Shown here piece by piece: positions 27,337 to 51,460 of a stretch of 64,000 bases of DNA. The position numbers and the translations under genes are program-made. This DNA is from a virus (taxonomy: Duplodnaviria; Caudoviricetes): positions 1-64,000 of IMG/VR virus record IMGVR_UViG_3300014205_000003; one strand, 5' to 3'. The notes beneath the pieces were generated by a model. That model was given only the letters and a program-made list of their open reading frames with translations, did no database searches and was not told the origin of the DNA. Positions within the stretch are counted from its first letter, which is position 1, and each line of letters opens with the position of its first letter.

Positions 27337-27338
27337 CT

Positions 27339-30257: not shown

Positions 30258-30258
30258 G

Positions 30259-30284: not shown

Positions 30285-30314
30285 ATAGGTAGTTAAGAAC
30301 AAAGGATCACACAG

Positions 30315-30878: not shown

Positions 30879-30897
30879 TCTTAAAGGAATTAGAGAC

Positions 30898-31245: not shown

Positions 31246-31247
31246 TT

Positions 31248-34019: not shown

Positions 34020-34024
34020 TTAAC

Positions 34025-34339: not shown

Positions 34340-34340
34340 C

Positions 34341-34898: not shown

Positions 34899-34913
34899 TA
34901 AGGAACACATAAG

Positions 34914-35144: not shown

Positions 35145-35353
35145 TGGATAAGCTGGCAGCATTCTTTGCAGGATACATGCACAAGTGTGCGGCTCTTCCA
35201 GCTGTGTTGCCGCCTTCTCCAATAACTGCTGATCCTGCGACAACCTACAAGACTCCTAGGACTAAGGGAACTCCTCAGCCAGGACAAGTTGTACAGAACA
35301 GTCCACTTCCTACGACTCCTTCAAATGTTATTCAGGAAGGTCCTTCGAAATGA
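35144..35353 (+). CDS. Leader-family protein
   Basis: MDKLAAFFAGYMHKCA. Confidence 0.65.
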   Translation: MDKLAAFFAGYMHKCAALPAVLPPSPITADPATTYKTPRTKGTPQPGQVVQNSPLPTTPSNVIQEGPSK

Positions 35354-36327
35354 CAAAGCTTCAGACTCTTATTTATCTTCAAGGCTACCTGAGCAAGGAA
35401 GCTTTCGACTTCAATCCTTTTGGCGATCGCAAGGGGCGTGCACAAGATGCTAAGGCAAATGCTCGTACTGCTAAGATCAATGCAGCTGAAGCTAAGTCGA
35501 ATCGTCAGAGCTACTTGACTGCTAATGATCTAGGGCTTCAAGATGCTTTAGCTAATCGTGCAACAAATAAAGGTGTGTATGGTCAGATGACTGCAGCGGC
35601 AAATGCTAAAGCTGCTCAGACGCCTGCACCGACTCCTGCTGCTTCTCCAGAGCCTATGCAAGATCCTGCGATTACTCGAGCACAGCAAGTAGCTGCCGCT
35701 AAGAAGATGTCTCCCTATATGCGCGGAAGCACAATGCCTCGGGCTCAACAGCTTAATCAAGCTGCTCCAACTGTTGCACAAGCAACTCCTACAGCTACTC
35801 CTAAGACTGTTGTTGATCCTAATCCGATGAATACAGGAAATGTAGGCGAGAAGCAACGCACAGCACTTTTACAAGAAGAACAACCAAACATGAATCGGTT
35901 AGCTATTCAAACAAAAGCACCTGCAATGCCTCAGTATCCTAGGAAAAATGTTGTTCCTACCTCGCCTAGACCTACGAGAGCTCAAGCGGCGGCACTGAAG
36001 GGTGAGGTAGCTAGTATTAAAGCAGCGCAGACAGCCCAAACACAACAACCTGCAGCAACTCCTTCGTTTAGACCTGTTGCAGCTGTTCCCCAAGGACGTG
36101 CGGCGTATACAGCAAGTAACAAAGATGATATGGGTCAAATTAGAGCAGGTACTGCTACAATGAATCCCGAATGGCTAAAAAGACCGTCTGGGGATTTTTC
36201 AAATAGTCAAAAGCGTCGAGATCTGATTAGAAATCAGCTGGTTGCTTTGCAAAGAGGGAAACGGACTCCAGATATTAACCAAGTTGCAAAAAATACGGGT
36301 GTTAACCTGCTTCTTCCGGCACTATAA
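35350..36327 (+). CDS. Leader-family protein (basic, A/P/Q-rich)
   Basis: MTKLQTLIYLQGYLSKEA. Confidence 0.65.
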   Translation: MTKLQTLIYLQGYLSKEAFDFNPFGDRKGRAQDAKANARTAKINAAEAKSNRQSYLTANDLGLQDALANRATNKGVYGQMTAAANAKAAQTPAPTPAASPEPMQDPAITRAQQVAAAKKMSPYMRGSTMPRAQQLNQAAPTVAQATPTATPKTVVDPNPMNTGNVGEKQRTALLQEEQPNMNRLAIQTKAPAMPQYPRKNVVPTSPRPTRAQAAALKGEVASIKAAQTAQTQQPAATPSFRPVAAVPQGRAAYTASNKDDMGQIRAGTATMNPEWLKRPSGDFSNSQKRRDLIRNQLVALQRGKRTPDINQVAKNTGVNLLLPAL

Positions 36328-37271
36328 TGACATCTCTCTCACATCTCCTAGAGAAAGACGCAGCTCCTGTTGCGGGTCGAGGTCCATTGAAGACCGTCCT
36401 GCGACAAGCTGTTGATCATCCAGACAATCACGCTGTCTCTGAAGACCAGTTGATTGACCTGCATGACTATCCACGCCATCGCCAAGACATCTTCGACAAA
36501 ACCCTCAAAGGTGTCGAAGCCGCCTTCCCAAAAGCCAATACTAAACATACGTTGACAGTAACTGATCTGCACTACGATGGTCCTGATCACTACTCCAAAG
36601 AAGACTACAAGAACGCGATTCTTGAACGACGTTCGATGACTCGCAAGCTTGTAGGAAAGTACGTCCTTACAGACAACGCAACAGGTAAAGTGATTTCGAC
36701 TAGTGGTCGTAAAACCATAATGAACGTTCCTTACTTGACAGATCAAGGGACGTTTTTGCGTAACGGCACAGAATCTGTGATACCTAGGCAGCTTAGGCTT
36801 CAACCAGGAGTCTATACGCATATGACTTCTGATGGATATCCAGAAGCACAGTTCAACGTAAAGCCCGGAACGGGAAGTGGCTTTCGTACTTATCTAGATC
36901 CTGAGACGTCTGTCTTCTATATGACTACACGCGGACGCAAAATTCCCCTTTATCCCCTGATGCAAGCCCTAGGAGTCGATGACAGATCTTTGCAGGCTAC
37001 TTGGGGAGATGAGATCTTCAAGGCCAATCAGGAGATGCGTACGAGTTCTCATGCTGCTCGCTGGCTGAACGAAATGAATACTAAGCTTGCTCCGAAGGTT
37101 GTAGATGTTCCTGAAGTGGAAGAACAGGATGTGAATCCTGGCGACGAAGAACTGCCTACTTCCAATTATCAGGAGACACCTGACGATGAACTCACAGATC
37201 TTACAGTTGGAGAAGCTGATCGATTACCTTCTACCGTTTCTGGAGATCAAGGAATCCTCGAACAACCCTAA
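36327..37271 (+). CDS. RNA polymerase beta subunit, N-terminal fragment
   Basis: [31 protein letters not shown] aligns with RpoB IPLMT..[34 protein letters not shown]. Confidence 0.85.
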   Translation: [314 protein letters not shown]

Positions 37272-37587
37272 AGCTGTTGGAGACAACGGCAAGGCTCGAG
37301 GAATCCTTCAGATACATCAGATCTTTGTTGACGACGTCAATCGAATATATGAAAGCAACTTCACTTGGGATGACTGCTGGAGCAAGAGTCTCTCCGAGCA
37401 AATAGTTAAGCTGTATCTTGTCCATTATGGTCAACGCTATATGGACAAGGAGAAGCAAGACTTAACGATCGACGTACTCGCTAGACTACATCAGGGTGGA
37501 CCAGATGGATATAAGCACACTTCTACAGTTCCTTACTGGCACGCAGTCAATCAAATCATTCGACATTCAGAAATAACGAACATGTAA
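37186..37587 (+). CDS. Invertebrate-type lysozyme/destabilase-like muramidase
   Basis: KESS, GILQIH..FVDD and ARLHQGGPDG. Confidence 0.7.
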   Translation: MNSQILQLEKLIDYLLPFLEIKESSNNPKAVGDNGKARGILQIHQIFVDDVNRIYESNFTWDDCWSKSLSEQIVKLYLVHYGQRYMDKEKQDLTIDVLARLHQGGPDGYKHTSTVPYWHAVNQIIRHSEITNM

Positions 37588-37614
37588 AAGTGCACATCTG
37601 TGCGTTTTCTGGAG
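37586..37614. repeat. Dispersed palindrome, copy 7
   Basis: AAAAGTGCACATCTGTGCGTTTTCTGGAG. Confidence 0.9.
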
Positions 37615-37798
37615 GATGCGTGTCACAGCTCTGGCAGAAAGCTCAAGTATACGAAGCACATGCTCATGGTGACGCAGAGATCGCAAGAATTATAGTGATT
37701 AATCGACAGTACGGTTTAGAGACGTTCAGTTGGGAAGTTTTGTTGAAGAGATATCAAGAGAGTCTTGTCACCTTGTTGCAGGGGCAGTGTAAGAACTA

Positions 37799-39055
37799 AT
37801 GAGCATTTGTACGAATCTCTTGCAGGATGTAAATGCAGGATATCAAGTTGCAAGAAATATGGATAGACTGTATCCTTGTGTAGATCCTATTCAGCGTCTA
37901 CAGGAAATGCATCCTGTCATTGTAGACTACGGAAGTAACTTTGGGGCTTTCTCTCTTACACTCGCTCAGATGTTTCCTAACGCTACAGTCTTCTCTATTG
38001 AGAGTGGGGAGATGCAGTATAATCCTGATCCGAGGTTTATAACCTCTAAGGGAGTAAGCTATCAAACGCAGAAAAAGGCTGAAAGAGGTTTAACCAACTT
38101 AGAGATCGGCCAGACTCACCTTACTTGTGACTTCTTCGAGCGTATGCGCAGATCCAACTGTCATGTAAGTGTTCATTTGATGATGAGCTTCATTCACTGG
38201 TTGGATGTGAAGAACTACACCGACTTCAGAAACCTGATTGAGAATCTCGTCCTTACATCTAGGGTTGTAATCTTGGAGTTGCCCTGTAAGAATGTGGATC
38301 AGTACAATCGAGCTGTAATCGACAACTGGTATGAAGGCGTAGAGACACCTGCGGAACTTCTCAAGAAGGTAAACAGAGATACAAAGCTAAACTTCAAGTT
38401 GATTCAAGTACGTCTGGCTGCGGCCTGCAGTCGTCCAATCTTTGTACTAGAAAACACACAAGCAGTTGTCTGCGGACGTTCTCCAGAAGGCTTGAAGTAT
38501 ATACTCACAGAGCAGGACAAGAAAGAGCCTTTAAACGAGTTGAGAAGACTGCCTTGGACAAAGACAAGTGTCAGTACAGTTGCTACAGATATACTAGAAG
38601 CCTCGTTCAATGGTAAGCCGGTTATCTGTAAGACGTTTAGAGATGTGCTGACTTGGCCCGATGGTGGACCTGTGGAGGAATCTACTGCAGTACGTCTGGA
38701 TGTACTTAGACATTTGAAAGGTGTTGCAGGTGTTCCTGAGTATCTTGCCTATGACTCTTACACAAAGCGGTTGTATACGAGTCATTGTGGTTGCAGGTTA
38801 ACTAAAGCGAATCTGCCTGCTGACTGGAAAGTACAACTTACAGATTTGTACAGTAGTTTGTGGAATTGTGGGGTTCTGATAAACGACTTCAAGTTAGAGA
38901 ATCTAACGGTTAGGGATAAAAGATTGTCCTTGGTAGACTTTGGGGCTGACGCTTTGATAGGGATACATTGCAGGACATCTACATATTTGCAGTATCGAGA
39001 GAGTGAAACTGCGGAGAATAGTATTGGGTGTTTGATTCGAGTCTTGTCCTTGTAG
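37799..39055 (+). CDS. SAM-methyltransferase plus kinase fusion (WbdD-like architecture)
   Basis: VDYGSNFGAFS SAM motif; NDFKLENL and LVDFG kinase motifs. Confidence 0.7.
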   Translation: MSICTNLLQDVNAGYQVARNMDRLYPCVDPIQRLQEMHPVIVDYGSNFGAFSLTLAQMFPNATVFSIESGEMQYNPDPRFITSKGVSYQTQKKAERGLTNLEIGQTHLTCDFFERMRRSNCHVSVHLMMSFIHWLDVKNYTDFRNLIENLVLTSRVVILELPCKNVDQYNRAVIDNWYEGVETPAELLKKVNRDTKLNFKLIQVRLAAACSRPIFVLENTQAVVCGRSPEGLKYILTEQDKKEPLNELRRLPWTKTSVSTVATDILEASFNGKPVICKTFRDVLTWPDGGPVEESTAVRLDVLRHLKGVAGVPEYLAYDSYTKRLYTSHCGCRLTKANLPADWKVQLTDLYSSLWNCGVLINDFKLENLTVRDKRLSLVDFGADALIGIHCRTSTYLQYRESETAENSIGCLIRVLSL

Positions 39056-39075
39056 TAGATGCGGTAAATTAGTAG

Positions 39076-39097
39076 AAGTGCACAGATGTGCGTTTTC
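39076..39097. repeat. Dispersed palindrome, copy 8
   Basis: AAGTGCACAGATGTGCGTTTTC. Confidence 0.85.
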
Positions 39098-39117
39098 TCC
39101 TTTGAAAGGATATACAG

Positions 39118-39375
39118 ATGAGTCAACTTCAATTGCAGGCTTTCTACTGTGGCTATATGGACAAGAAGGCGGCTGATCCTGCTAATCAGCAAGTGCTGGC
39201 AACCAAGCTGCAAGAGGAACAGACGAAACCTAAAGCAGGTATGTGGGGCCAGTTGCCGAGTGTTGTTGGACAGAAAATCAAAGATATAACCCTAGGCAAA
39301 CAGACTACTCCTAGTCTTAATCAGCAGATTGCTCCAGTTAAGAACACTCAGAAAGACTTGATGTCGTCCCTGTAA
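39118..39375 (+). CDS. Leader-family protein
   Basis: MSQLQLQAFYCGYMDKKA. Confidence 0.65.
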   Translation: MSQLQLQAFYCGYMDKKAADPANQQVLATKLQEEQTKPKAGMWGQLPSVVGQKIKDITLGKQTTPSLNQQIAPVKNTQKDLMSSL

Positions 39376-39382
39376 CCTTAAT

Positions 39383-39455
39383 GCACTACTGGTGTTCAAT
39401 GGTAGCACATGACCCTTCCAAGGTTATGGAATCAGTTCGAATCTGATGTAGTGCT
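39383..39455 (+). tRNA. tRNA-Gly (UCC)
   Basis: Acceptor GCACTAC/GTAGTGC; D arm; anticodon arm TGACC-CTTCCAA-GGTTA; T arm ATCAG-TTCGAAT-CTGAT; U discriminator. Confidence 0.92.
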
Positions 39456-39519
39456 CTCCACTTAACTCTTATGTCAAAAGAAGATACAAGTCACAAAGCA
39501 GATCAGACGGAGGTGTCGG

Positions 39520-39804
39520 ATGATTCCGAGCCCCCTCTCAACTCTAGTTCTCTATGGACTGTATTTACTTGTTGGTGCGAGCGAGTGGTCGCTCTGTGTC
39601 GTTCGTACAAGGGCAATAGCCTTGAATCATGTGCGGACAGCGGTTGTTATTGTCTTTATCGAAAACGCGCTTTCGCTTTGGGTACTCTCGAACTTTGTAA
39701 GAAGTAATGACTTTGGTCTAGCGTTTGCTTATTGCTTAGGTGGTTCAATCGGGGCGTATACAGTTTGTAAGAGTTCTGCGGGGAATAAGACAAATGACAA
39801 ATAA
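39520..39804 (+). CDS. Small 3-TM membrane protein
   Basis: GGAGG RBS; AYCLGGSIGAY. Confidence 0.6.
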   Translation: MIPSPLSTLVLYGLYLLVGASEWSLCVVRTRAIALNHVRTAVVIVFIENALSLWVLSNFVRSNDFGLAFAYCLGGSIGAYTVCKSSAGNKTNDK

Positions 39805-40366
39805 TCAACTGAACGCTTTCTTCACTGGCTACTTGCAGAAGTCTGATACAGACACTATGCAGAAGACTGCCAACAGTGTAGATATGCCTATTGGAGAGTT
39901 CTCCAAGATTCAACCTTGGGATCTGTACAAGCGCTTAGGCATTGCAGACAATACTGGACACGCTCCTCGAATAGAAGCTATCATTGCCAGTCGCAGAGAA
40001 CAAGGACAGCGGCTCAATGGAGATACCGCTAAGGCCTTTGAGTGTACTAAGCTCGCCAATGACTCTACAGATGCACGCAAGTATAGAGACTTCGTCGACA
40101 ACGACGGCAAGTACAACAAGTCAAAAGACACTGATGTAGATAACGAAAAAGCAGAGCTTGCTGCTGGACGTAAGGTAGAGAAGGAACATACGAGTAATCC
40201 TGAGATTGCTACTCGCATAGCGAAGGATCATCTCGTTGAATCCAAGGAAAGTCCTCTAGGATACTACAAGGGCTTGAGCATGCTGGAACGATTCATGGAC
40301 AAGCTCAAGCAGAAAGCACGTCCAACAGAAGCCATCAAAGAGTTCGATGAGGTTACTAAGAAATGA
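39794..40366 (+). CDS. Leader-family protein with DUF5661-like domain
   Basis: MTNNQLNAFFTGYLQKS; GRKVEKEHT..IAKDHL.E...YY..L. Confidence 0.65.
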   Translation: MTNNQLNAFFTGYLQKSDTDTMQKTANSVDMPIGEFSKIQPWDLYKRLGIADNTGHAPRIEAIIASRREQGQRLNGDTAKAFECTKLANDSTDARKYRDFVDNDGKYNKSKDTDVDNEKAELAAGRKVEKEHTSNPEIATRIAKDHLVESKESPLGYYKGLSMLERFMDKLKQKARPTEAIKEFDEVTKK

Positions 40367-40944
40367 CTAGAGCTCAGCAGACAGCTTTCATGCATGGTTA
40401 TCTGGAGAAGTCTGGGAGCATTGTACAGAACGGTATTCGTTTCTTTAGTCGTGCAGGATTAGGTACATCTACACTTAAACCTAGTCAGTTTGAGTTCATA
40501 GAAAGATCCAAAAGCTGGAATCCTGTTAATAGGATGTTTCTAAAGGCTCTTAAAATGGCGGGTGGAGAAAAAGCTTTAGCAAAAATACGTGATGCATCTA
40601 TGCTTGAGGATATACAACCCGGAACAGGTCTTGCAGGAGTCGCGGCGACAGGCGGAAAAGTTGTTGCGTTGGCAGATGCAAAAGCTTTCACGCCAATGCA
40701 ACGACGATCTGTTATAGCACACGAGGCATTTCACGCCAACAATCCGCAGATAGGTAAATATGAGTTACTAGCTCGTCTGTATGGAGGGTATAAATCCCAG
40801 AAGAGTAGCAGTCTGTTCTCCAGACTGAAAGCAAGTGCAGACGAAGGGAGAGATTATATATCTTCCTTCAAGAATCCAGAGTTTGCAAAGCATTATCCTA
40901 AATCTCCTTTTCAGAACGAGACGGTTAGACGTCTTTTTGTGTAA
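40363..40944 (+). CDS. Leader-family protein with HExxH motif
   Basis: MTRAQQTAFMHGYLEKSG; IAHEAFH. Confidence 0.65.
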   Translation: MTRAQQTAFMHGYLEKSGSIVQNGIRFFSRAGLGTSTLKPSQFEFIERSKSWNPVNRMFLKALKMAGGEKALAKIRDASMLEDIQPGTGLAGVAATGGKVVALADAKAFTPMQRRSVIAHEAFHANNPQIGKYELLARLYGGYKSQKSSSLFSRLKASADEGRDYISSFKNPEFAKHYPKSPFQNETVRRLFV

Positions 40945-40970
40945 CACTAGAGACCTTATAGGACACCCTT

Positions 40971-43900
40971 ATGCCCGATGATCTCAAAACACCCATCGTT
41001 GAACCAACTCCTAACTACATCAAGTCCTACTTCGAGAAAATGGAGCTCGATCCTGAATCTGTCCAGTCAACACTCGGTCGTCCGCATACTCATGCGACAG
41101 CCGATGCGATCCTCGACGCCACCTCCAAAGTCCTCAAGCTCTCCCGCCGAGAAGTAGATCCAGACGACAGAGACTCTCTGGAGTTTCAAACTGTCCACGA
41201 TGCTTCCGACTTCCTTCCAGACAAAGTACGTATGGACCAAGGTGGAATATTGCGGAAAGCTCTGTGGAAGCTTACAAACAAGAACGGAGACTTCTCTAAG
41301 GTTCCTGCAGGACTCTTGGACAAACACAATGACAACCTGTTCAACGTCAGTGGTTTAAGCCAAGGCATTGAAGAAACGTCAAATTTCGAGATGTATGATC
41401 AGAACACTCGAGTTCATCGAATGGGTGAAGGCGCTCTTCCTAGCATTGATGCCATTCCTTTGGAAGCACGTGCAGTCTCTCCAAGTTACTTAGGTTTAAT
41501 AGATTGCGTCCGCACCCCCGAAAGTTTGAAGGTAGGTGTTGACCTCAAATTTGCGCGTAATGTGAAGAAGGGTCCTAACAACCTCGTCTATACCAAGATG
41601 CTGGATAAAGATGGGAAAGAGGTTTGGGTATCTTCTAGAGATTTACCTCGGTCGATCGTTATGTTTCCAGACTCTGGAGATAAAAACGATAAGTTCGTGC
41701 CTGCTATTGTTAGAGGACGTACTTTGGAGTATGTGGATAGGAAAACTGTAAATTACACGCTTCCTTCTGGAGATGACATGTTCTCAGAGGGCGGTAATCT
41801 TACTCCTAGTGTGTCTGGTGTAAAAGGTATGCGCTTGTTGCTTGCAGGCAAATATCCTGCGGCAGCACTGTCTATTACAGGACGTGAAGCTCCACTAGTA
41901 CAGACAATGTCTTCTGATGGAACTCCTACGTCCGATCGTATAGGAAAACACTTGGGGCCTTCCTATTCGTCTATTGAGGGTACTGTTACTAAGGTTACTC
42001 CTACAGAGATCTGGATCAAAGATGCTAAGGGTAAGATTGAAAAGAAAGATCTGTACAATGATCATCCGTACATGCGTAAATCCTATCTGCACAACACTCC
42101 TGAAGTAGAAGTCGGGCAGATGGTTAAAGCTGGAGACATTCTAGCTTCCAGCAACTTTACAGACTCTAAGGGTAATGCGGCCTTAGGTGCAAACGTACGT
42201 ATGGCTTACATGCCGCACGATGGTTTGACCTTTGAGGATTCCTCAATCATATCAGAGTCTTTGGCTAAGCGCATGACTTCGTTACATATGTACAACGAAG
42301 ATATTGACACAGATGACGCTACTCGCTTGGATAAGAAGACCTTCATGCAGATGTTCCCTGGAAAGTACTCTAAGGAACAACTGGCTAAGCTGGATGCCAA
42401 AGGCATGGTATTGCCGGGAGTAGTCCTCAATAGTGGCGATCCTATGTTCTTAGGAATTAAGGAAACTCCTCCGGGTCCTGGTAATATGGGACGTGGCTCT
42501 GTTCGACAGGTTGTCAAGAACTGGGAATACGACACTCCCGGAACTGTTGCGTACGCAGCTAAGACTAAGGGAGGCTTTACTGCCTTTGTAAAGACTCAGG
42601 AACCTTTTCAAGAGGGTGGAAAGATTGCTACTCCATATGGAAGCAAGTCAGTAGTTGCTAGAATCTATCCCGACGATCAGATGCCTAGGGACAATCAAGG
42701 ACGTCCTGTAGAGTGGATCATGAGTCCTTTTGGCGTTCAAAGCAGAACGAATCCAGCACTTATTCCTGCAGGAGCTTTAGGTAAGATTGCTGCCAAGACA
42801 GGTATTCCTTACAACCTTAGAGGCTTCAATCCCGGCGAGGTTAAGAAATTTGCAGACGAAGAGCTTGCTAAACATAACATGACCGATAAAGAAGACGTGT
42901 ACGATCCTGTGCGCAAAGTAACAATTCCAGGCATCTATGTTGGAAACGTTTACGCCTACAAGATGCAGCAAACTGCTGAGAATAAAGGACATGCACGTTC
43001 TGTAGGTACGTATAGTGCTGAGGATGTGCCCCTTAAGGGTGGTTCTAGCGGAAGTAAGCATGTGGGCGACATGGAGTGGTTTGGTTTACTTTCTCACAAT
43101 GCAATTGCGAATATCTATGATATGAAGCAAGTTAAAGGTCGTCGCAATGATGACTACTGGCGTCAGGTTAAGCTTGGACAGACTCCTAGTGTTCCCGGAA
43201 CTCCTGTAGTCTATTCCAAGTTCAAAGACTTGCTCAAAGCTGCTGGTGTAAATCTGTCGGAAGGTAAGGACACCACGTCTATCTTTGGTATGACTAACGC
43301 ACAAGCGGAGAAGTTGACAGGTAATCGAGAACTTGACTCTGCTTCTACCTTCAACGCGAATACCTTCAAGCCAATTCCTGGAGGTCTCTTCGATTCTGAT
43401 AAGACAGGTTCGTTGGGGGATGGTAGAGGCTGGAGCTACTACAGTCTTCCAGAACCTTTGCCCAATCCTGTAATGGAAGAGCCTATTCGAGCTTTGCTTG
43501 GAGTTACTAAGAAAGACTTCGACAAAGTGATCTCTGGAGAACTTCCTCTCAACGGTAAGTATGGTGGACAGGCTATTACAGAATACCTGAAGCGTGTCAA
43601 TCTGGATGATGTGATGAACACAGCTTCAGAGACCATTCGCAGTGGCAGTAAGTCTAAGCGAGATGCCGCTGTTAAGGTTTATGGCTACGCCAGTGCCATG
43701 AAGAAGCAGGGTGTACGCCCTGAAGAGTTCATGATGACTCGTGTACCTGTCCTGCCTCCTGCTTGGCGTCCTATTACTGCTAGTGGAGCTCGTACGATGG
43801 TTGCTGATCAGAACTATACGTATCGAGCATTGTTCGACAGTATTCAGGACTACAAGGATTCCATGAGTCTTCCTGAGGATCTTCGACAGACAGCTCGACA

Positions 43901-44663
43901 GAACATGTACAACAGCTACAGAAGTCTCGTAGGCACTACTGATCCTACACAGGAGAAGCTGGTACAGAAGAACGTTGGCGGTTTGCTGGACAGTCTGCTT
44001 GGCAAATCCTCGCCAAAACTGGGATTCTTTCAAAGGCGTGTAATTGGTTCTAACATTGACATGGGTGGTTTAGGGGTTGTTACCTTGAACTCCTCTCTCA
44101 AATTGAACGAAATAGGTTTACCAGAAGCGACTGTCTGGGACTTGTACAGTCCTTTCATTGTTCGTAAGCTTGTTCAGCAGGGTATGCCAGCTATGCAGGC
44201 AGCTGAAGCAATCAAGAGTAAGACAGAACAAGCAGGTAAAGCTCTACAGGGTATTATGAAAGAGCGACCTGTACTGATGAATCGTGCGCCTACCAACCAC
44301 AAGTACAGCATTATGGCTGTGTGGCCTAGAATGACTAAGGGACATTCTGTACAGGTTAATCCTACCCTTATGGGTCCCTACACAATGGACCTGGACGGCG
44401 ACGTTGCAAGTTATTCTGTTCCAGTGAGTAATAACGCTGTCAAGGAAGCAATTGCGCGTATGCTTCCTGAGAAGAATCTGCTGTCTGTTTCAAATGACAA
44501 GCCGATGTATGTTCCGAGTCAGGAGTTTGCTATGGGTGGCTGGACGATGTCCAAGGAGCCTAACAGGGACAAGCCTGTACGTTTCAACACTTGGCAGGAT
44601 GCTGTGAAGGCTTACAAGACTGGGCAGATTAAGGTAGATACTCCTGTAATTGTAGGACGTTGA
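40971..44663 (+). CDS. RNA polymerase beta(C-terminal)-beta'(N-terminal) fusion with catalytic DxDGD
   Basis: TPES, GGKIATPYGSKSVV, SRTN, GDMEW (beta); VPVLPPAWRP, LMNRAPTNH, TMDLDGD (beta'). Confidence 0.92.
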   Translation: MPDDLKTPIVEPTPNYIKSYFEKMELDPESVQSTLGRPHTHATADAILDATSKVLKLSRREVDPDDRDSLEFQTVHDASDFLPDKVRMDQGGILRKALWKLTNKNGDFSKVPAGLLDKHNDNLFNVSGLSQGIEETSNFEMYDQNTRVHRMGEGALPSIDAIPLEARAVSPSYLGLIDCVRTPESLKVGVDLKFARNVKKGPNNLVYTKMLDKDGKEVWVSSRDLPRSIVMFPDSGDKNDKFVPAIVRGRTLEYVDRKTVNYTLPSGDDMFSEGGNLTPSVSGVKGMRLLLAGKYPAAALSITGREAPLVQTMSSDGTPTSDRIGKHLGPSYSSIEGTVTKVTPTEIWIKDAKGKIEKKDLYNDHPYMRKSYLHNTPEVEVGQMVKAGDILASSNFTDSKGNAALGANVRMAYMPHDGLTFEDSSIISESLAKRMTSLHMYNEDIDTDDATRLDKKTFMQMFPGKYSKEQLAKLDAKGMVLPGVVLNSGDPMFLGIKETPPGPGNMGRGSVRQVVKNWEYDTPGTVAYAAKTKGGFTAFVKTQEPFQEGGKIATPYGSKSVVARIYPDDQMPRDNQGRPVEWIMSPFGVQSRTNPALIPAGALGKIAAKTGIPYNLRGFNPGEVKKFADEELAKHNMTDKEDVYDPVRKVTIPGIYVGNVYAYKMQQTAENKGHARSVGTYSAEDVPLKGGSSGSKHVGDMEWFGLLSHNAIANIYDMKQVKGRRNDDYWRQVKLGQTPSVPGTPVVYSKFKDLLKAAGVNLSEGKDTTSIFGMTNAQAEKLTGNRELDSASTFNANTFKPIPGGLFDSDKTGSLGDGRGWSYYSLPEPLPNPVMEEPIRALLGVTKKDFDKVISGELPLNGKYGGQAITEYLKRVNLDDVMNTASETIRSGSKSKRDAAVKVYGYASAMKKQGVRPEEFMMTRVPVLPPAWRPITASGARTMVADQNYTYRALFDSIQDYKDSMSLPEDLRQTARQNMYNSYRSLVGTTDPTQEKLVQKNVGGLLDSLLGKSSPKLGFFQRRVIGSNIDMGGLGVVTLNSSLKLNEIGLPEATVWDLYSPFIVRKLVQQGMPAMQAAEAIKSKTEQAGKALQGIMKERPVLMNRAPTNHKYSIMAVWPRMTKGHSVQVNPTLMGPYTMDLDGDVASYSVPVSNNAVKEAIARMLPEKNLLSVSNDKPMYVPSQEFAMGGWTMSKEPNRDKPVRFNTWQDAVKAYKTGQIKVDTPVIVGR

Positions 44664-44821
44664 TAATCTCTTATGAGGTTGTCGATGACTTCATTTGATA
44701 TTCCTAGATCTGTTCAGCATGATACGTATTCCTGTGGAGCTCATGCTGTAAGAAGTCTGTTGTGGTACTTCAAGCGTCCTGTTCATTAGTTGTCGAAATA
44801 GTTAATAAGCTGTAAGAAGCA

Positions 44822-44850
44822 TTGACAACTTTGACTTGGTGGTCTATATT
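44822..44850 (+). promoter_or_regulatory. Sigma70-type promoter for tnpB (leaderless transcript likely)
   Basis: TTGACA-N17-TATATT, ATG 7 nt downstream. Confidence 0.7.
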
Positions 44851-45958
44851 AAGATTATGATCAGAACCGTAAATATAGACCTAAATCATCTGACGCAACA
44901 TAAGCGGTCTAGCATTGCTGCGTTACTTACTGCATATAGAAGTGCTGTAAACTTCTACTGCAAAAGCCTATGGAACACTCCAGGGAAACTAGATGCAGTT
45001 ACAGAGAAACGTCTTGTAAACTCTCGTCTGACTGCCCGATATCGTTGCACTGCTCTCAAGACAGCTCTCGCAATTGTTATTACAACCCGCAGAGCTCTGA
45101 AGGTAACTAAGAAGTACGGATCAATTCCAGTTCTTACAGGTATGGTTTCTCTGGATCAGAAGTTCGTTACAGTTGAAAAAGGTAAGCAAAGCTTCGACTA
45201 CGTACTCAAACTCTCCTCGCTGTCTTCTGGAAACCGGATCACAATTCCTTTCAACTCTCACAAGAGACTTCAGTATTGGCTATCGAAGCCAGGAGCGGTC
45301 CTGAAACAAGCTTGTCAGATCTCTGAAGACAGGATGAAACTCTATGTAGAGTTTCCAGACGAAGCTCCTCGCACAACAGGACGTGTCCTAGGTGTAGACG
45401 TCGGAATAAACAAACTGCTGACTACTTCGGACAATGTCTTCTTAGGAACAACTTGGAAAGCTCTGTCTCTGAAGATCAGACGCTGCAAAGTTGGAAGTGC
45501 TGGAAGACAACGAGCATACAGAGAACGTGATCAGTTTATTAATCGTACTGTCAATCTTCTTCCTTGGTCAGAACTTCGAGCAATCGGAATTGAAGACCTC
45601 AAAGGTATGAAGACAGGTAAAAGTAAGAATCGAGGAAAAGCATTTCGTAAAGCACTGGCACCATGGCTGTACCGTCGACTGCTCAACCGCATAGAGGTTA
45701 AAGCAGAGGAGAACCGTGTTCGTCCTCTGCGTGTACCTGCGGCCAATAGTTCACGGGAATGTCCACGTTGTGGAATGGTGTCGAAGCTGAATCGCACAGG
45801 AGAGAACTTTGTTTGTATTCGTTGCGGCCACGCTGCGGATGCCGACTACGTCGGAGCAAGCAATGTTCTCGCTCGTACTATGCAGATCCTAGGGAGCTAG
45901 AGTCCCCTAGTGCCAAAAGCTGGAATTGTTAGCGCAAGTTAACTATTACGGTAACTCT
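44827..45958 (+). mobile_element. Non-autonomous TnpB element (IS200/IS605 superfamily)
   Basis: Starts after TTGAC and ends at ACTCT; removal restores the interrupted reading frame. Confidence 0.7.
44857..45900 (+). CDS. tnpB: TnpB RNA-guided endonuclease
   Basis: GVDVG, IEDL, CPRCG..CIRCG and DAD; RuvC triad intact. Confidence 0.9.
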   Translation: MIRTVNIDLNHLTQHKRSSIAALLTAYRSAVNFYCKSLWNTPGKLDAVTEKRLVNSRLTARYRCTALKTALAIVITTRRALKVTKKYGSIPVLTGMVSLDQKFVTVEKGKQSFDYVLKLSSLSSGNRITIPFNSHKRLQYWLSKPGAVLKQACQISEDRMKLYVEFPDEAPRTTGRVLGVDVGINKLLTTSDNVFLGTTWKALSLKIRRCKVGSAGRQRAYRERDQFINRTVNLLPWSELRAIGIEDLKGMKTGKSKNRGKAFRKALAPWLYRRLLNRIEVKAEENRVRPLRVPAANSSRECPRCGMVSKLNRTGENFVCIRCGHAADADYVGASNVLARTMQILGS

Positions 45959-46229
45959 CTCCCAAGCCCTCTGAATGTCTAGACTACTCCTAAGAACAAT
46001 TCCTGTATGCTTCAAACCACTTGCTGTAAGTGCTCTAAGCAGACACACCCACCTTATCCTTCTTCCGTCGTGCAACATAGCTTCTTCATAGCCCTCCAAT
46101 ATGGTAATAGGACGCTAAATTAGTCTATGTTGTTGATTCAAGCAATGGCAGGGATACAGAGTTCAGTCACTTAGAGTGGTTTCGGTACGAATACGATCAC
46201 ATACGAGTGTTTGCGATAAAGAATTAACT

Positions 46230-47156
46230 ATGACCGAAGCAGACCTTCAAAAACTTGCGGCAATCTCTTGGGGAAAACTTCTGCACGAAGGTTCAGAAGG
46301 GCAGAATGCTTCTAGAGATGCTATCGCAAAACTCTTGCAGATCATGCGCAAGCATACGCCTACAACTTTTCTTCCTCACAAATATCGCTTGCCTAATCTG
46401 TTTAACAAAGCTCCTGACTTCTTCTTTCCTGGTTGGTCAGAGCGAAAAGTTCTAGAGCATCCTGTAACGCAGAAAGTCCTTCAAGCGACTGTAGGTAAAG
46501 TTCCAGGTATGTCCTTGCCTATCTCTAATCTGCCAAACAGGCTTGAGCAGGTTTCTGGACTACTGTCAGATGCCGCTAAGCAGTATACGGCTCCTCTCAG
46601 TAGAGGTGTTAACAAAGCTGTATCTCTTCTTCCTCGTAAGACTCAAAAGATTACACCTCTCAAGGTGGACGATTTGAAGATTACCGACGATGTATCGAAG
46701 CTGGACAAGACAGGTTCAGACGCTTGCAGTCTGTTGCTTCAGAAGCTCGCAGAGAAAAACGATGAGTGGACTGCAGGCGATGTAGCTCTAACAGGCGCGG
46801 CTGGAAGTCTAGCCGCTCCTATCTATGCAGGGTCTGAATATGCTACAATGAAGCACTTGGCCAAGAAGCAACCTGTTGCTCAGGGTTTGATGAATCCTAA
46901 CAAGTGGGCACATGTAATTGCTAAGTTGATCAAAGCCCAGAAAGATGTTGAAGTTTCTGACAAGACACGTGCAACGTATATAAAACAGTGGAACAATGCG
47001 GCTAAGAGTACTTGGAGAAATGGTAGAGACGTTATGCTTACTGCAGAAGGTGTAAATCCTAAGCTGGTTAAAGGCGGTAAGTACAGTTTGATGATTCTTC
47101 CTGCAGTACTTACTGCTTTAGCCATTCAGAGTAAGCATAATGACAAGTTAAGTTAA
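46230..47156 (+). CDS. KxA-family protein
   Basis: LQKLAA, LDKTGS, LQKLAE; C-terminal hydrophobic helix. Confidence 0.6.
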   Translation: MTEADLQKLAAISWGKLLHEGSEGQNASRDAIAKLLQIMRKHTPTTFLPHKYRLPNLFNKAPDFFFPGWSERKVLEHPVTQKVLQATVGKVPGMSLPISNLPNRLEQVSGLLSDAAKQYTAPLSRGVNKAVSLLPRKTQKITPLKVDDLKITDDVSKLDKTGSDACSLLLQKLAEKNDEWTAGDVALTGAAGSLAAPIYAGSEYATMKHLAKKQPVAQGLMNPNKWAHVIAKLIKAQKDVEVSDKTRATYIKQWNNAAKSTWRNGRDVMLTAEGVNPKLVKGGKYSLMILPAVLTALAIQSKHNDKLS

Positions 47157-47179
47157 TAAGTAGAACAAAGGAAACGCAC

Positions 47180-47857
47180 ATGTCAGTTCACACGCAACGT
47201 CTTATCCAGCTTCTGCAAAAAGAAGGCTTCGTTCCTCCGACTCCTCCCCCGCAGGGTATGCCTCCTGGCGCTCCTCCTGCTGATCCGAATGCTGGAATGC
47301 CTCCCCAAGGTGATCCTGCTGCCGCTGGTGCACCTGTTGATCCCGCGACAGGTATGCCAATGGACCCTGCAATGGCTCAGCAGATGCCAGCAGATCCTGC
47401 CGCAATGCCTCCTCCGGGTGATCCTGCAGCTATGGGTGGTGCACCTGTTGATCCTGCTACAGGTATGCCGATGGACCCTAACGCTATGCCTGCTGATCCC
47501 AATGCTCAGCCGCCAGTTCCTACTCTTGCAGAGATTCCTGTGGATCAGTTCATGGCGATGATGCAGGACATGATGACTGCTGGTAAAGCTCCTGAGGGTC
47601 CTGCGGATGACGGCAAGAAAGAATCTGTTGCCGATCTGAGCAAGCGCATGGAGAATCTTGAAGGTATGCTGAGTCAGCTCCTGCAGGCTTCGGGTATGAT
47701 GCCTCCTGAGCAGGGCGCGGCTCCTATGGCTCCTCCGATGCCTCCTCCTGACGCTACGCAGAAGACTGCCGCTCTTGCTGAGTTGAAGAACAAGAACGCT
47801 GTCAAGAACGCAACTCTGGCAGGCAAGCTTCGTAAACTCGGTGGCGTGGTTCGCTAA
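47180..47857 (+). CDS. Pro/Ala/Met-rich protein with leader-like N-terminus
   Basis: LIQLLQKEG; repeated GAPVDPATGMPMDP; TQKTAA. Confidence 0.65.
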   Translation: MSVHTQRLIQLLQKEGFVPPTPPPQGMPPGAPPADPNAGMPPQGDPAAAGAPVDPATGMPMDPAMAQQMPADPAAMPPPGDPAAMGGAPVDPATGMPMDPNAMPADPNAQPPVPTLAEIPVDQFMAMMQDMMTAGKAPEGPADDGKKESVADLSKRMENLEGMLSQLLQASGMMPPEQGAAPMAPPMPPPDATQKTAALAELKNKNAVKNATLAGKLRKLGGVVR

Positions 47858-47885
47858 AAAGTGCACATCTGTGCGTTTTCTGGAG
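47856..47885. repeat. Dispersed palindrome, copy 9
   Basis: AAAAAGTGCACATCTGTGCGTTTTCTGGAG, identical to copy 7. Confidence 0.9.
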
Positions 47886-47892
47886 ATTGTAG

Positions 47893-48570
47893 ATGCCTGA
47901 TCAAGATCATCAGAGTCGTGTTGAGCGCATGAAAAACTCTTTGAAGAGTCTGGCTACTCAAGCTGGAAACACTCTCAAAGAACATCCAGAATACGTTACA
48001 GCGCCTGCTGGAGCTCTTGCCGGGGGTTACTTAGCTAACAAGGCTACAGGTAATCCTTTGATGACTGCTGGAAGTGCCGCTGGTGGTGCAGGACTGGCTT
48101 ATGCTCTAACAGACGTCTTGAAACATCAGACTCCTGGAGTACTTGCTAAAGACTTGAAGCCTGAGAGTACTTCTAATGCTGTCGAGGACTTTGCAGAGTC
48201 TCCAATAATGACGACTGTTGGAACAGCGGCATCTGCTCTACCTTCTGCGGCTCTTACAGGAGCTCAACTTACAGGTCTGTCTGCTATTCCTGGATATGGT
48301 CTCTATCGGCTTAAAGAACTTCTCAGACGTAAGGGTGTTTTTGACAAAGTAGTAGATGAAACAGGTAAAGCAAAGAAACCCACAGGTGTTTTAGGTGGGA
48401 TTAAAGGCTTCGTTACAGGCAATGAACACATTTGGAACCCTATTCAGGCTAGTGGGATAAACCCTATTGCTCAGAAAGCTCACAGAGTTGTTAAAGCTTC
48501 TGCAATTCCTGAAGGCGTTAAGAAGGTCTTGCGTGCGGTCATAGGTTCTGGTATCATTAAGGCTAAATAA
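47893..48570 (+). CDS. Gly-zipper protein
   Basis: AGALAGGYLA and AAGGAGLAYAL. Confidence 0.55.
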   Translation: MPDQDHQSRVERMKNSLKSLATQAGNTLKEHPEYVTAPAGALAGGYLANKATGNPLMTAGSAAGGAGLAYALTDVLKHQTPGVLAKDLKPESTSNAVEDFAESPIMTTVGTAASALPSAALTGAQLTGLSAIPGYGLYRLKELLRRKGVFDKVVDETGKAKKPTGVLGGIKGFVTGNEHIWNPIQASGINPIAQKAHRVVKASAIPEGVKKVLRAVIGSGIIKAK

Positions 48571-48572
48571 GC

Positions 48573-50405
48573 ATGCCTGCTCAAACAGTAGGTCAGTACC
48601 TAATTCAGAATATCCTTCCAGCAGACGTCTACGACGGCTCTCCGCTGGACAAAAAGGGTATTGCTAAAGTCTTCTCCCAGTTGGCTGAAAAGTATCCAGA
48701 CAAGTACGTAGATATTCTGGATGACTACAACCAAGCTGCTGGAGACGCTGTAGCACGTTATGGTGGCGTTGCTTCTATTGGTCTCTCAGACTTAGACATT
48801 CCAGAACCTGTTAAGATTCATCGTGATGCTCTCCGTCTGAAAGTCAAAGCTATTCAGCAGAGTCCTACGCTTACAGGTAAACAGAAGAATGACGCTGTAG
48901 TCAAGTTGATGCTCTCAGAAGCAGACAACATTCGCAAGATGACTACAGAAGAGTCCATGAAAAATGGCTCACACTTCGGTCTTTCAGCTTCCAAAGGCTT
49001 CAGAGGAAATCCGTTGCAGACTACGCAGATGATTTATGGAGATCTTCTCGTAGCCGACCATAAAGATCGGCCAATCCCTGTTGCAGGTCTGCATGGTTAT
49101 GGCGAAGGTGTAACCCCTGCTGAGTACTTCGCAGGCTCGTATGGTGCTCGTAAAGGACAGGTCTCAGTACAGATTGCTACTGCTAAGTCTGGATTCTTAG
49201 GTAAAGAAATATCCTACGCAGCCCAACGTCAAGTAATTACCGGAGACGACTGCGGAGCTAAGAATGTAGGCATAACAGTCAATGGAGATAATCCTGAGAT
49301 CATAGGAAGTGTTCTAGCCAAGACTACAAAAGGTATCCCCGCAGGAACAGTTATTACCAAGAACAATCTTCCAGACCTTGAAGGTACTAAAGTTCGTATC
49401 CGTTCTCTCAGTACTTGTCAGATGCCTAACGGAGTTTGTAAGATGTGCGCAGGCAAGAGAGAACAGGGAAAGTTCCCCGACACAGGGTCTTACGTTGGAA
49501 TCACGTCTGCCAGAAGTTTGTCAGAACCCTTTACGCAATCGGCACTTAGTTACAAGCATACTGGAGGAGTTGCAAAGGGTAAAATTGATCGTGGTCTTCA
49601 AGGCTTTGCAGAGGTTGAGCAGTTCTTCAATGCTCCTGAGAACTTCAAAGGTGTTGCTCTGCAGTCTACCAAGGATGGGATTGTTCAGAACATCATCAAA
49701 GCTCCTCAAGGGGGCTCGTACGTATTCATTGACGGTCAGAAGCACTACGCTGATCCTGACATGACATTGACAGTTAAGAAAGGTGATTCTGTAGAAGCTG
49801 GAGATGTTCTTTCCGATGGAACTCCTCATCCAGGCCTTGTAGCTCACTATAAGGGATTGGGAGCTGGACGCGCTTATTTCATTGATAAGCTTGGCCAGAT
49901 CTTAGAGAAGAATGGTATTCCTGGGCACATGAGACACGTCGATTCTATGGCTAAAGCCTTCTACGACAGAGTACGTATAACTAATCCAGAAGGCTTCATG
50001 GGATACAACCCTGACGACGTTGTTCCCTATACAGAGATCCAAAAGGATTATAGCCCACGGAAAGGTACTATCTCTGTTGCTCCTAAACAAGCTGTCAATC
50101 AATACTTAGAACGTCCTGTTCTGCACTACACCATTGGAACACGTGTTACTCCCAATGTGATCAAAGAGATGAACGAAGAAGGTGTTCCTGCAATTGAAGT
50201 CCATAAAGACCTTCCAGACTTCGAACCTGAAGTCTCAAGGATTATGGATATCCAAGCATCTGATCCAGATTGGCAGACACAGCTTGCGGGCTTCAATCTA
50301 AGGAAGAGTTTGCTGAAGTCTGTTACACACGGCTCCACAAGTACTACAGCTGGTACTTCCTATGTTCCCAAGTTAGTCAATAGTACGGTTCTGCAAAATG
50401 CTTAA
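48573..50405 (+). CDS. RNA polymerase beta' subunit, C-terminal part
   Basis: Bridge helix EYFAGSYGARKG..TAKSGF; Zn site DDCG/RS..TC...GVCKMC; trigger loop SLSEPFTQ..HTGG. Confidence 0.9.
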   Translation: MPAQTVGQYLIQNILPADVYDGSPLDKKGIAKVFSQLAEKYPDKYVDILDDYNQAAGDAVARYGGVASIGLSDLDIPEPVKIHRDALRLKVKAIQQSPTLTGKQKNDAVVKLMLSEADNIRKMTTEESMKNGSHFGLSASKGFRGNPLQTTQMIYGDLLVADHKDRPIPVAGLHGYGEGVTPAEYFAGSYGARKGQVSVQIATAKSGFLGKEISYAAQRQVITGDDCGAKNVGITVNGDNPEIIGSVLAKTTKGIPAGTVITKNNLPDLEGTKVRIRSLSTCQMPNGVCKMCAGKREQGKFPDTGSYVGITSARSLSEPFTQSALSYKHTGGVAKGKIDRGLQGFAEVEQFFNAPENFKGVALQSTKDGIVQNIIKAPQGGSYVFIDGQKHYADPDMTLTVKKGDSVEAGDVLSDGTPHPGLVAHYKGLGAGRAYFIDKLGQILEKNGIPGHMRHVDSMAKAFYDRVRITNPEGFMGYNPDDVVPYTEIQKDYSPRKGTISVAPKQAVNQYLERPVLHYTIGTRVTPNVIKEMNEEGVPAIEVHKDLPDFEPEVSRIMDIQASDPDWQTQLAGFNLRKSLLKSVTHGSTSTTAGTSYVPKLVNSTVLQNA

Positions 50406-51460
50406 CCACTTTTCACGGAAGGGGGACTATAAGCTCCCCTCTGTCGAATATTAATGGCCGCATTGAAGTCTGCGTCCATCGTCATTCCACACGCGGTACA
50501 ACAGAACGACTCTCCCTTACGGGAAAGTTTGTCTACCGCTCCGCACAAGCTGCATGTCTGCGAAGTATAGGCAGGAGGTACTTTCGTATACTTAATGCCT
50601 AATTCTTCGCTGACCATCTGAAGCCGACTCAAAACTTTTGAGTAGCTCCAGCGTTGCAGCTTGTTCATGAACTGTTTGCGAATCTTACCTTTAGACCCCT
50701 TCTTCACATCCTTCAAATCTTCTACTACAAGCTCTCGAACGTTCTGCAAGTCGAGAAGATTAACAGACTGATTGATCTTCTGATCACGTTCTGTAAGAGC
50801 TCGCTTGAAAGCTTTAGATCCTTGCTTCTTCCTAGCAATTTTCTTATACACATCTTCCATACCTACGTCGTAGATTTGCTGATCTGACGAAGCAAGAAGC
50901 TTCTTGTACCCGCAATCAAGACCTAAGGAAGATCCTATAGAAGAGCTAGGAGTAGTCTTCTCGAAGAAGACATCGAGGAACCACTTTCCGTTTACGTTTC
51001 TTAAACAGGAGCCTTTCAGTAGTTTCCAGCCATTCTGACTGAACTTGAGAAAGTGTTTATGTTTACGTGAAGGGATCTTAAGGATGAGCTTGTTCCCAAG
51101 ACAGTATATTTTTATCCAGAAGTCGAAGGAGTTAGTTTCGGCGTAAAAGGTGCAGATATTTTCACTTAAATCAAACGTCTTCTGTTTGATCACCGGCTTG
51201 GAAGCTTTCTTGCCTTTGTTCTTTCGCGTCCTTGTTCTGTTAAGCACGCCAAAAGCCTGAATAAAGAGACAGTGACAAATTCTATGAGAGAGCCATGTTT
51301 GAACAGGTTGTAGCTTGTCAAATTTTCTTGCTGACGGATATTGCCAAAAGTGATCTACGTAGACGTTGAGAACACGTAGAGCTTCATCACTGAACGTATT
51401 AAGCTTCTGGAGCTTTCCAGCATTAGCAAAATTCAATGACATTTGAACTCGACGAATCAC
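50402..51460 (-). CDS. tnpB: TnpB RNA-guided endonuclease
   Basis: GLDCG, VVEDL, TSQTCSLCG..CTACG and DADFNAA. Confidence 0.92.
   Translation of the reverse strand: MIRRVQMSLNFANAGKLQKLNTFSDEALRVLNVYVDHFWQYPSARKFDKLQPVQTWLSHRICHCLFIQAFGVLNRTRTRKNKGKKASKPVIKQKTFDLSENICTFYAETNSFDFWIKIYCLGNKLILKIPSRKHKHFLKFSQNGWKLLKGSCLRNVNGKWFLDVFFEKTTPSSSIGSSLGLDCGYKKLLASSDQQIYDVGMEDVYKKIARKKQGSKAFKRALTERDQKINQSVNLLDLQNVRELVVEDLKDVKKGSKGKIRKQFMNKLQRWSYSKVLSRLQMVSEELGIKYTKVPPAYTSQTCSLCGAVDKLSRKGESFCCTACGMTMDADFNAAINIRQRGAYSPPSVKSG

Follow-up and report, generated by a model that had tools for sequence, protein, structure and literature searches.

Background

Multisubunit RNA polymerases (RNAPs) encoded by phages are known mainly from the phiKZ/AR9 type, whose enzymes have diverged far from those of cells and lack a sigma factor. 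A nearer described system is that of Salmonella phage Arash (record OQ632216). Mass spectrometry of Arash virions found gp206 to be the most abundant protein (3516 spectra, 100% coverage) and also detected gp216, the sigma-like protein gp10 and a helicase; the polymerase chains were labelled beta and beta', with no mention of a fusion (PMC10585845). Here we describe a phage RNAP encoded by three genes in the window, which is the whole stretch of DNA analysed, bases 1-64000 of virus record IMGVR_UViG_3300014205_000003. This record is complete, with 188,069 bp and direct terminal repeats, and the window is the first third of a tailed-phage genome from a large, mostly uncultured clade. New here is a rare, further-split three-gene form of a widespread two-gene phage RNAP. 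Our preferred reading, which as a whole we hold at a probability of roughly 70%, is that the genes encode a stripped-down bacterial-type core of three chains that assembles noncovalently, works with a sigma factor of its own and is probably packed in the virion.

This layout is undescribed in a comparative study of jumbo phages (PMC7824862), in two reviews (PMC7598289, PMC13282480) and in the paper on the mReC group (PMC7481178), and we found no other paper describing it; the moraphage paper (PMC12619734) concerns phages without an RNAP. The family to which the enzyme belongs comprises hundreds of phages, cultured members included, yet its layout seems never to have been described in print.

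Three chains of one bacterial-type core

The RNAP genes and the junction within the second of them are as follows.

36327..37271, + strand: beta-N, the stand-alone N-terminal piece of beta, 314 amino acids (aa); NCBIfam PRK00405 rpoB positions 48-226, E value 3.5e-13
40971..44663, + strand: fusion chain, 1230 aa, the rest of beta plus beta' residues about 20-550; Pfam and Salmonella RpoB/RpoC alignment
43233..43295, + strand: beta/beta' junction, where the last conserved beta block runs into the first beta' block without a linker; RpoB and RpoC alignments
48573..50405, + strand: beta'C, the back of beta', 610 aa; Pfam Rpb1_5, E value 3e-20; rpoC_TIGR positions 550-1048, E value 3e-50

All three open reading frames (ORFs) had been proposed in a first-pass annotation of the window, and each is present and was identified as an RNAP piece by Pfam, NCBIfam and fold search. 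Alignment with Salmonella RpoB and RpoC places the three products, in order, colinear with bacterial beta and then beta'. Residues about 37-245 of beta-N match E. coli beta 1-225, and the tail from residue about 250 is acidic, unconserved and modelled with low confidence. Pfam gave no match for the 314-aa chain. Its AlphaFold model has a mean predicted local distance difference test score (pLDDT) of 74, and the top 50 matches of the model in the PDB are all bacterial RNAP beta chains (E value about 1e-11). Beta-N also aligns to residues 4-261 of Arash gp206 and, at 36-52% identity, to the N-termini of single-chain relatives.

The fusion chain begins just past the site equivalent to the E. coli insertion SI1 (about E. 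coli beta residue 360) and runs through the C-terminus of beta. Pfam recognizes in it Rpb2 domain 6 (residues 334-683, E value 2.5e-33), Rpb1 domain 1 (909-954) and Rpb1 domain 2 (1090-1162, E value 4.8e-17), so that both double-psi barrels do lie on one 1230-aa chain, as had been proposed. It is 31% identical to Arash gp206 over 99% of its length. Beta'C matches Arash gp216 and its D69 homologue. The insertions SI1, SI2 and SI3 of E. coli are absent from the three-chain core.

All three ORFs are intact, and their start codons are tightly coupled to the upstream genes: that of beta-N overlaps the stop of the preceding ORF, and that of beta'C lies 2 nt past the upstream stop. A single beta barrel in the whole genome indicates one polymerase set. 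We considered a second set or stray fragments and ruled these out, as none occur elsewhere in the genome. A split intein or intron was likewise rejected; the 3.7-kb gap contains several ORFs with their own starts, and no intein blocks were recognizable by eye at the ends of the pieces.

Catalytic and structural motifs

Alignment located the following elements in the fusion chain and beta'C.

41337..41438, + strand: equivalent of rifampicin-binding cluster I of beta; MAFFT alignment with Salmonella RpoB
42615..42650, + strand: beta barrel motif with the two catalytic lysines K551 and K559, invariant in the family alignment
43380..43448, + strand: site of the missing beta' N-terminal zinc ribbon, residues 804-826; 11 Cys-free residues versus about 30 with four Cys in E. 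coli
43806..43910, + strand: beta' clamp helices, predicted docking site of the sigma-like protein; aligned to E. coli beta' 264-310
44382..44402, + strand: catalytic metal-binding motif Thr-Met-Asp-Leu-Asp-Gly-Asp, residues 1138-1144
49125-49226, + strand: bridge helix in beta'C; Salmonella RpoC alignment
49227-49457, + strand: second zinc site in beta'C, with its four Cys kept within these positions
49470-49562, + strand: trigger loop in beta'C

The catalytic motif stands as first read, TMDLDGD, with all three Asp kept. The window has D1140, D1142 and D1144 as well as K551 and K559, none of which varies in the family alignment. Across the best 120 relatives Asp-x-Asp-Gly-Asp is invariant and the remaining motif positions vary; the canonical bacterial form occurs in 20 relatives, a form beginning with Gly in 25 and the variant of the window in one, while the nearest relatives of the window have related variants. 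On this alignment the variant is lineage drift, with function apparently not lost.

The first reading of the beta' N-terminal zinc finger as deleted also holds, since a stretch of 11 residues without Cys stands in its place. This is a family trait: the segment has 10-16 residues and no Cys in 46 of 46 scorable relatives. The second zinc site, the bridge helix and the trigger loop are indeed kept, all of them in beta'C, which retains the C-terminal conserved region as well.

Within cluster I, position 516 is changed from Asp to Glu, 526 from His to Gln, 531 from Ser to His and 533 from Leu to Met. These four are positions of rifampicin-resistance mutations in E. coli rpoB, and the changes suggest that the phage enzyme would be naturally insensitive to rifampicin.

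A widespread family with a two-gene norm

A tblastn search of phage records recovered homologues in Salmonella phage Arash and in Vibrio phages D69, D148 and D181; these are about 31% identical to the fusion chain and span 98-99% of it. Arash gp206 (1525 aa) comprises all of beta and the front of beta', and gp216 (606 aa) the back of beta'; D69 has the same layout, with a fusion chain of 1527 aa. The two barrel domains occur together in more than 100 of the 5.8 billion protein clusters searched; these are about 1450-1490 aa long and come from contigs of 170-225 kb, many with inteins. A single-protein query of the IMG/VR viral contigs gave nothing and an alignment query was needed, by which 183 contigs were found to encode relatives. 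In 79 of the 79 fetched IMG/VR loci that cover both parts, a single uninterrupted frame runs from beta-N into the rest of beta, and in the fetched loci beta'C usually follows about 1 kb downstream on the same strand. The family norm is therefore one chain of beta fused to roughly the leading 40% of beta', up to and including the active-site barrel, and a second chain with the remaining beta'.

These relatives change how the locus is to be seen. The first-pass annotation had presented the layout as isolated, and instead the fusion and the beta' cut are shared by Arash, D69, D148, D181 and hundreds of metagenomic phages. The pieces largely match a phage RNAP family with the same split, and only the extra beta-N cut is unusual.

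Polymerase genes of the family are heavily invaded by inteins (LAGLIDADG, Hint), as in relatives P0005, P0014, P0021, P0022, P0034, P0047 and others. Those of D181 and D148 are split by a homing endonuclease gene.

The extra cut in beta and the cut in beta'

In the window phage the separate beta-N gene lies 3.7 kb upstream of the rest of beta, and alignment with Salmonella RpoB places the cut at the SI1 insertion site of E. coli (residues about 225-345). The same cut is seen in locus L004, where a peptidase-like gene and a pyrophosphatase (InPase) gene lie, in that order, between a beta-N gene (268 aa) and the fusion gene. About 10 of the best 120 relatives start where the fusion chain of the window starts, or have other domains instead of beta-N. 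Only eight clusters of stand-alone beta-N were found in the large protein collection; they are 265-478 aa long and 44-54% identical to that of the window. Judged from these sequences, the three-gene form is rare but maintained over considerable divergence, and such maintenance of one cut argues against decay.

Other relatives carry additional domains at or near this point. The single-chain relative P0049 has DUF5661 and a 2H phosphoesterase domain inserted at the junction equivalent to SI1, and P0039 has SET, LNS2 and 2H domains at the equivalent site. In P0040, InPase and 2H are fused to the front of a chain without beta-N, and in P0130 a stand-alone beta-N is followed by a 2H domain. We read the SI1-equivalent loop as an insertion hot spot where the gene came apart. 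When the intervening genes of the window were compared with the 120 relatives by BLAST, only one weak match was obtained (DUF5661, E value 8.6e-4), and so these genes as a whole cannot be called descendants of the relatives' inserts.

In E. coli numbering the fusion chain stops at beta' residue about 550, shortly before the point where beta'C resumes; against the cyanobacterial models, the fusion chain reaches position 550 of 619 in RpoC1, and beta'C begins at position 9 of RpoC2. This cut point is recurrent by alignment and not unusual, because it lies close to the cyanobacterial gamma/beta'' boundary, at which the phiKZ-type enzymes are cut too (PMC7598289). The split points had both been flagged as unusual at first; that description fits the extra beta-N cut and does not fit the beta' cut, which is the norm of the family.

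Candidate partners of the core

Neither alpha nor omega had been recognized in the window, and the statement extends to the complete genome, in which PF01000 (alpha) and PF01192 (omega) found nothing; the controls were positive in 14 of 14 genomes. It is possible that the phage core uses host alpha. For sigma, the earlier report of no recognizable factor is right for the window and wrong for the genome, which has a divergent sigma70-family gene at genome positions 84507-85223, outside the window and 34 kb downstream of the RNAP genes. Neither region 2 nor region 4 of sigma was matched by Pfam in the 188-kb genome. The encoded protein is a homologue of Arash gp10 (E value 5e-13) and matches Sigma70_r3 with an E value of 2.5e-5, just under the Pfam cut-off, and its relatives have regions 3 and 4. 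A profile built from 13 relatives matched almost only sigma factors in the PDB (best E value 7e-5).

Complex prediction of the sigma-like protein with fusion-chain residues 800-1230 gave a score of 0.65, versus 0.00 for the best of 3 controls; the mark used was reached by 58 of 80 solved complexes and by 2 of 110 mismatched pairs. Runs agreed in at least 32% of contacts, and the pLDDT of the partner was at least 70. The predicted interface comprises fusion-chain residues 948-978, which are aligned with the beta' clamp helices. Because complexes of sigma with the clamp helices have already been solved, the favourable score may stem from likeness to them and not from binding by this copy, and it would not distinguish the phage core from that of the host.

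Origin of the family

Bacterial models fit the chains far better than archaeal models do (E value 1e-55 versus 1e-11), and the 60 best PDB matches are all bacterial, with no phiKZ- or AR9-type chain among them. The earlier assignment to the bacterial type, and to neither the phiKZ/AR9 nor the crAss-like kind, is thus upheld by strong Pfam and NCBIfam matches and by bacterial structures. A scan of 185,579 species genomes showed bacterial rpoC matches of only 29-33% identity with no phylum prominent (best of 597 matches), and no family member was found inside these bacterial assemblies. Divergence within the family is as deep as that between the family and bacteria (window to Arash, 29-31%).

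A concatenated tree of beta and beta' was built from 44 rows, comprising 19 family members and 25 bacteria of 13 phyla, over 1930 columns with the LG+G4 model, which is more open to long-branch artefacts than a site-heterogeneous model. The family and Bacteria stand on the two sides of a branch of length 1.84 with a support of 100 by the Shimodaira-Hasegawa-like approximate likelihood-ratio test (SH-aLRT), and the fused Wolbachia enzyme falls among the bacteria. A tree of beta' under LG+C20 resolved three groups with support of at least 99, namely Bacteria, the family, and a group of Rhizobium phage RHph_Y65 with Vibrio phages Va2 and 1.031.O. PF00562 found no beta in the records of these last three phages, which therefore appear only in the beta' tree. 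Both trees are unrooted and were made without an archaeal outgroup. As far as such trees go, the family is placed outside all sampled Bacteria, which excludes recent capture from any sampled phylum. Being unrooted, they are compatible with an ancient as well as a fast-evolving family, and with an origin in common with other phage lineages as well as a separate one.

Gene context

The surrounding genes and other features of the window are given below in order of position.

28094..29947, + strand: portal protein gene, with which the head module containing the RNAP genes begins; tblastn matches to the Arash gp204 portal, E value 1.7e-40, and to the D69 homologue, E value 3e-47
37186..40944, + strand: block of genes from beta-N to the rest of beta; Pfam and leader comparison
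37186-37587, + strand: destabilase or i-type-lysozyme-like ORF; Pfam Destabilase E value 1.2e-5, just under the cut-off
37799-39055, + strand: 418-aa ORF, methyltransferase-like and kinase-like; N-terminal part a weak FtsJ match, E value 0.064
39118-39375, + strand: small leader-tagged ORF; shared N-terminal leader
39740-40366, + strand: leader-tagged DUF5661 ORF; Pfam DUF5661 E value 2.9e-4 (weak)
40363-40944, + strand: leader-tagged ORF with a His-Glu-x-x-His motif, directly upstream of the fusion gene; leader comparison
44836..45900, + strand: TnpB-like gene after the fusion gene, not a part of the polymerase; Pfam Cas12f1-like TNB E value 6e-15, PHROG transposase E value 4e-23
46176-47156: ORF of unknown function, an addition like the TnpB-like genes at 44836-45900 and 50402-51460
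47180-47857, + strand: gene for a Pro/Met/Ala-rich protein, between the fusion gene and beta'C
47893-48570, + strand: gene for a Gly/Ala-rich protein, between the fusion gene and beta'C
50402..51460, - strand: second TnpB-like gene, abutting the end of beta'C and not a part of the polymerase; Pfam Cas12f1-like TNB E value 3e-19
54025-55095, + strand: third TnpB-like gene (Cas12f1-like TNB domain)
62762-63808: HNH endonuclease gene, just downstream of the capsid-like gene; PHROG 374, E value 4.5e-24

All family members examined have their RNAP genes in the head module, with portal on one side and protease on the other. A single small gene separates the portal gene from the RNAP fusion gene downstream of it in Arash and D69, and in the window the RNAP genes are followed by protease-like and capsid-like genes. 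Twelve ORFs clustered around the RNAP genes (window 26337-40450 and genome position 65921) share an N-terminal leader, Ala-Phe-aromatic-x-Gly-Tyr-Met/Leu-x-Lys, within the first ~25 residues. This leader is possibly a capsid-targeting signal or a protease-cleaved propeptide. A k-mer search of the intergenic DNA revealed no clear promoter motif.

The 3' end of the beta-N gene and the ORF at 37186-37587 overlap, in different frames. The C-terminal stretch of the ORF at 37799-39055 has a protein-kinase-like catalytic loop followed by Asp-Phe-Gly, and the protein is without the leader. A weak Peptidase_M48 match (E value 0.017) was obtained for the L004 ORF at 8547-9407, which lies after beta-N and ahead of the InPase and fusion genes; considered with the window ORF at 40363-40944, this ORF raises the idea that a metallopeptidase may be a conserved neighbour of the polymerase.

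The two kinds of ORF at 47180-48570 occur in the same place in L006, L007, L011, L018, L048 and L066, a likeness judged by eye from composition and N-termini and not scored. Directly upstream of beta'C, many two-chain relatives have a conserved ORF of ~80-90 aa (L007, L011, L018 and L048, at about 14370-14770), which could be a small polymerase-associated protein; the genome of the window has no counterpart of it. The three TnpB-like genes all lie within the head module, two of them directly flanking the RNAP genes, and no TnpA was seen nearby.

Discussion

We propose that the first gene of a two-chain enzyme was split again at a surface loop of the beta lobe, the SI1 insertion site, and that the three resulting chains assemble without covalent joining. 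Fusion of beta to beta' would probably take over part of the assembly role of alpha. Promoters would most likely be recognized by the phage sigma70-family protein docked on the beta' clamp helices. By analogy with Arash, the only phage of the family for which presence in virions is known (by mass spectrometry), enzyme and sigma would probably be packed in the particle and begin phage transcription without the host polymerase.

Several observations weigh against this proposal. The catalytic motif of the window differs from the family consensus at two non-Asp positions, and the region of the beta flap tip, which in bacteria is the binding place of sigma region 4, is shortened relative to Arash. 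The genome has no homologue of the gp196-type second sigma of Arash and D69. None of the three RNAP pieces carries the N-terminal leader of the 12 neighbouring ORFs; if that leader is a capsid-targeting signal, the polymerase enters the capsid by another route or not at all. For Arash itself, the authors point out that abundant intracellular proteins can contaminate virion preparations (PMC10585845).

Two of these points also bear on the idea that the polymerase is active but stays out of the particle, being made after infection for middle or late genes as are the non-virion enzymes of phiKZ and AR9, with transcription of the early genes left to the host polymerase. The absence of the leader, unlike in the neighbouring ORFs, and the contamination allowed for by the Arash authors would fit such a role, as would the single polymerase set, since phages known to deliver a multisubunit RNAP by injection encode a non-virion set in addition (PMC7598289). 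Against it are the rank and full coverage of gp206 in Arash virions, with gp216, gp10 and the helicase beside it, and the position of the genes between portal and protease. Domains of the polyvalent-protein type (2H, SET, InPase) are moreover built into the chain of relatives, and such domains are typical of injected proteins. We regard a purely non-virion role as unlikely, though it is the most serious competitor to packaging. Recent and independent capture of a host rpoBC operon followed by fusion and splitting, which is close to the origin proposed in the first-pass annotation, is a good deal less probable. It would account for the better fit of bacterial over archaeal models, for PDB matches that are bacterial and never of the phiKZ/AR9 type, and for the sigma70-family partner. 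However, the concatenated tree sets the family apart from 25 bacteria on a long and fully supported branch, the LG+C20 beta' tree agrees, the best bacterial matches remain at 29-33% with no phylum prominent, and a layout common to hundreds of phages is as diverged internally as it is from bacteria; no donor lineage or recent capture is visible.

Decay of the locus has to be weighed as well, the extra cut then being a gene broken by inserted DNA and the polymerase inactive or being lost. The crowding of the locus with mobile genes (three TnpB-like genes and an HNH endonuclease), the frequency of inteins and homing endonucleases in the genes of relatives and the unusual catalytic motif all lend themselves to this account. 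It is nevertheless very improbable in view of three intact ORFs with coupled starts, every catalytic and structural hallmark kept, the same cut in relatives only 44-54% identical and a genome free of stray fragments. A three-chain core with its own sigma, probably delivered in the particle, thus remains the reading that we prefer.

A further suggestion, which is tentative and goes well beyond this reading, is that the SI1-equivalent loop serves as a cargo site, with 2H, SET, InPase and DUF5661 domains riding into the host on the injected polymerase. In the lineage of the window the gene would have broken at that loop and the cargo would now consist of separate proteins tagged with the putative capsid-targeting leader, leaving a minimal three-chain, sigma-dependent holoenzyme without alpha or omega. 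If this were true, the enzyme would be the smallest natural RNAP of the bacterial type and a natural test of the limits to cutting beta.

In comparison with the phiKZ/AR9 type, the family is compact and readily aligned with the bacterial core, carries the two barrels in a single chain, encodes a sigma70-type factor of its own, and is probably delivered by the particle. It could be a tractable model for the need for alpha and omega, for sigma-dependent initiation on a minimal core and for phage bypass of host transcription; cultured members (Arash and Vibrio phage D69) make bench tests possible. The three-gene form amounts to a natural experiment suggesting that beta tolerates a cut at the SI1 site, which is recurrent for domain insertion and gene fission. 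Branching outside the sampled Bacteria bears on whether phage RNAPs are ancient or are fast-evolving captures.

Comparison with known systems

Arash, D69, D148 and D181 share with the window phage the fusion of beta to the front of beta', the same beta' cut and the lack of the N-terminal zinc ribbon. They further share RNAP genes near the portal in the head module, a sigma-like protein of the gp10 type and genomes of 180-188 kb. Arash and D69 differ in a fusion chain that includes the whole of beta (1525 and 1527 aa) and in a second sigma of the gp196 type, and identity to the window is about 28-33%.

Bacterial RpoB and RpoC are colinear and readily alignable with the phage chains, have all the same catalytic elements and work with a partner of the sigma70 family. 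The phage differs in having no alpha, omega, SI1-SI3 or beta' zinc ribbon, and in the cuts of beta at SI1 and of beta' after the barrel. Joining of the beta C-terminus to the beta' N-terminus is also known from the rpoB-rpoC fusions of Helicobacter and Wolbachia (NCBIfam PRK09603 and PRK14844). Cyanobacteria and plastids, with gamma/RpoC1 and beta''/RpoC2, share a beta' cut shortly after the active-site barrel, whereas in the phage the cut precedes theirs by some tens of residues in the alignment, the piece before it is fused to beta and the large RpoC2 insertion is missing.

The phiKZ and AR9 enzymes are likewise phage-encoded, without alpha and omega, cut in beta' past the barrel and known in a virion form, but they consist of four or five chains with beta and beta' parts separate, come in two paralogous sets, have no sigma70 homologue and show far lower similarity to cellular enzymes (PMC7598289). 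A tblastn search gave only weak partial matches to YerA41 and Carin-5. The mReC group (Weinheimer and Aylward 2020, PMC7481178) is also a bacterial-like RNAP outside Bacteria, in large tailed phages that are mainly metagenomic. Its supplementary table (file 5) has separate beta (about 1000-1400 aa) and beta' (about 900-1300 aa), sometimes in two sets, and mentions no fusion (PMC7481178). On these protein lengths, gene architecture rules out that the family is identical with mReC. RHph_Y65, Va2 and 1.031.O have a separate full-length beta' and form their own group in the beta' tree, apart from the family. The crAss-like and YonO enzymes are one chain with two barrels that cannot be aligned with cellular beta and beta', whereas the enzyme of the window has three chains with strong Pfam and NCBIfam matches. 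Lastly, Severinov and colleagues reportedly assembled, in the 1990s, active enzyme from fragments of E. coli beta split in a dispensable region; the cut lies in the same surface region, there in a laboratory construct and here in a natural gene arrangement.

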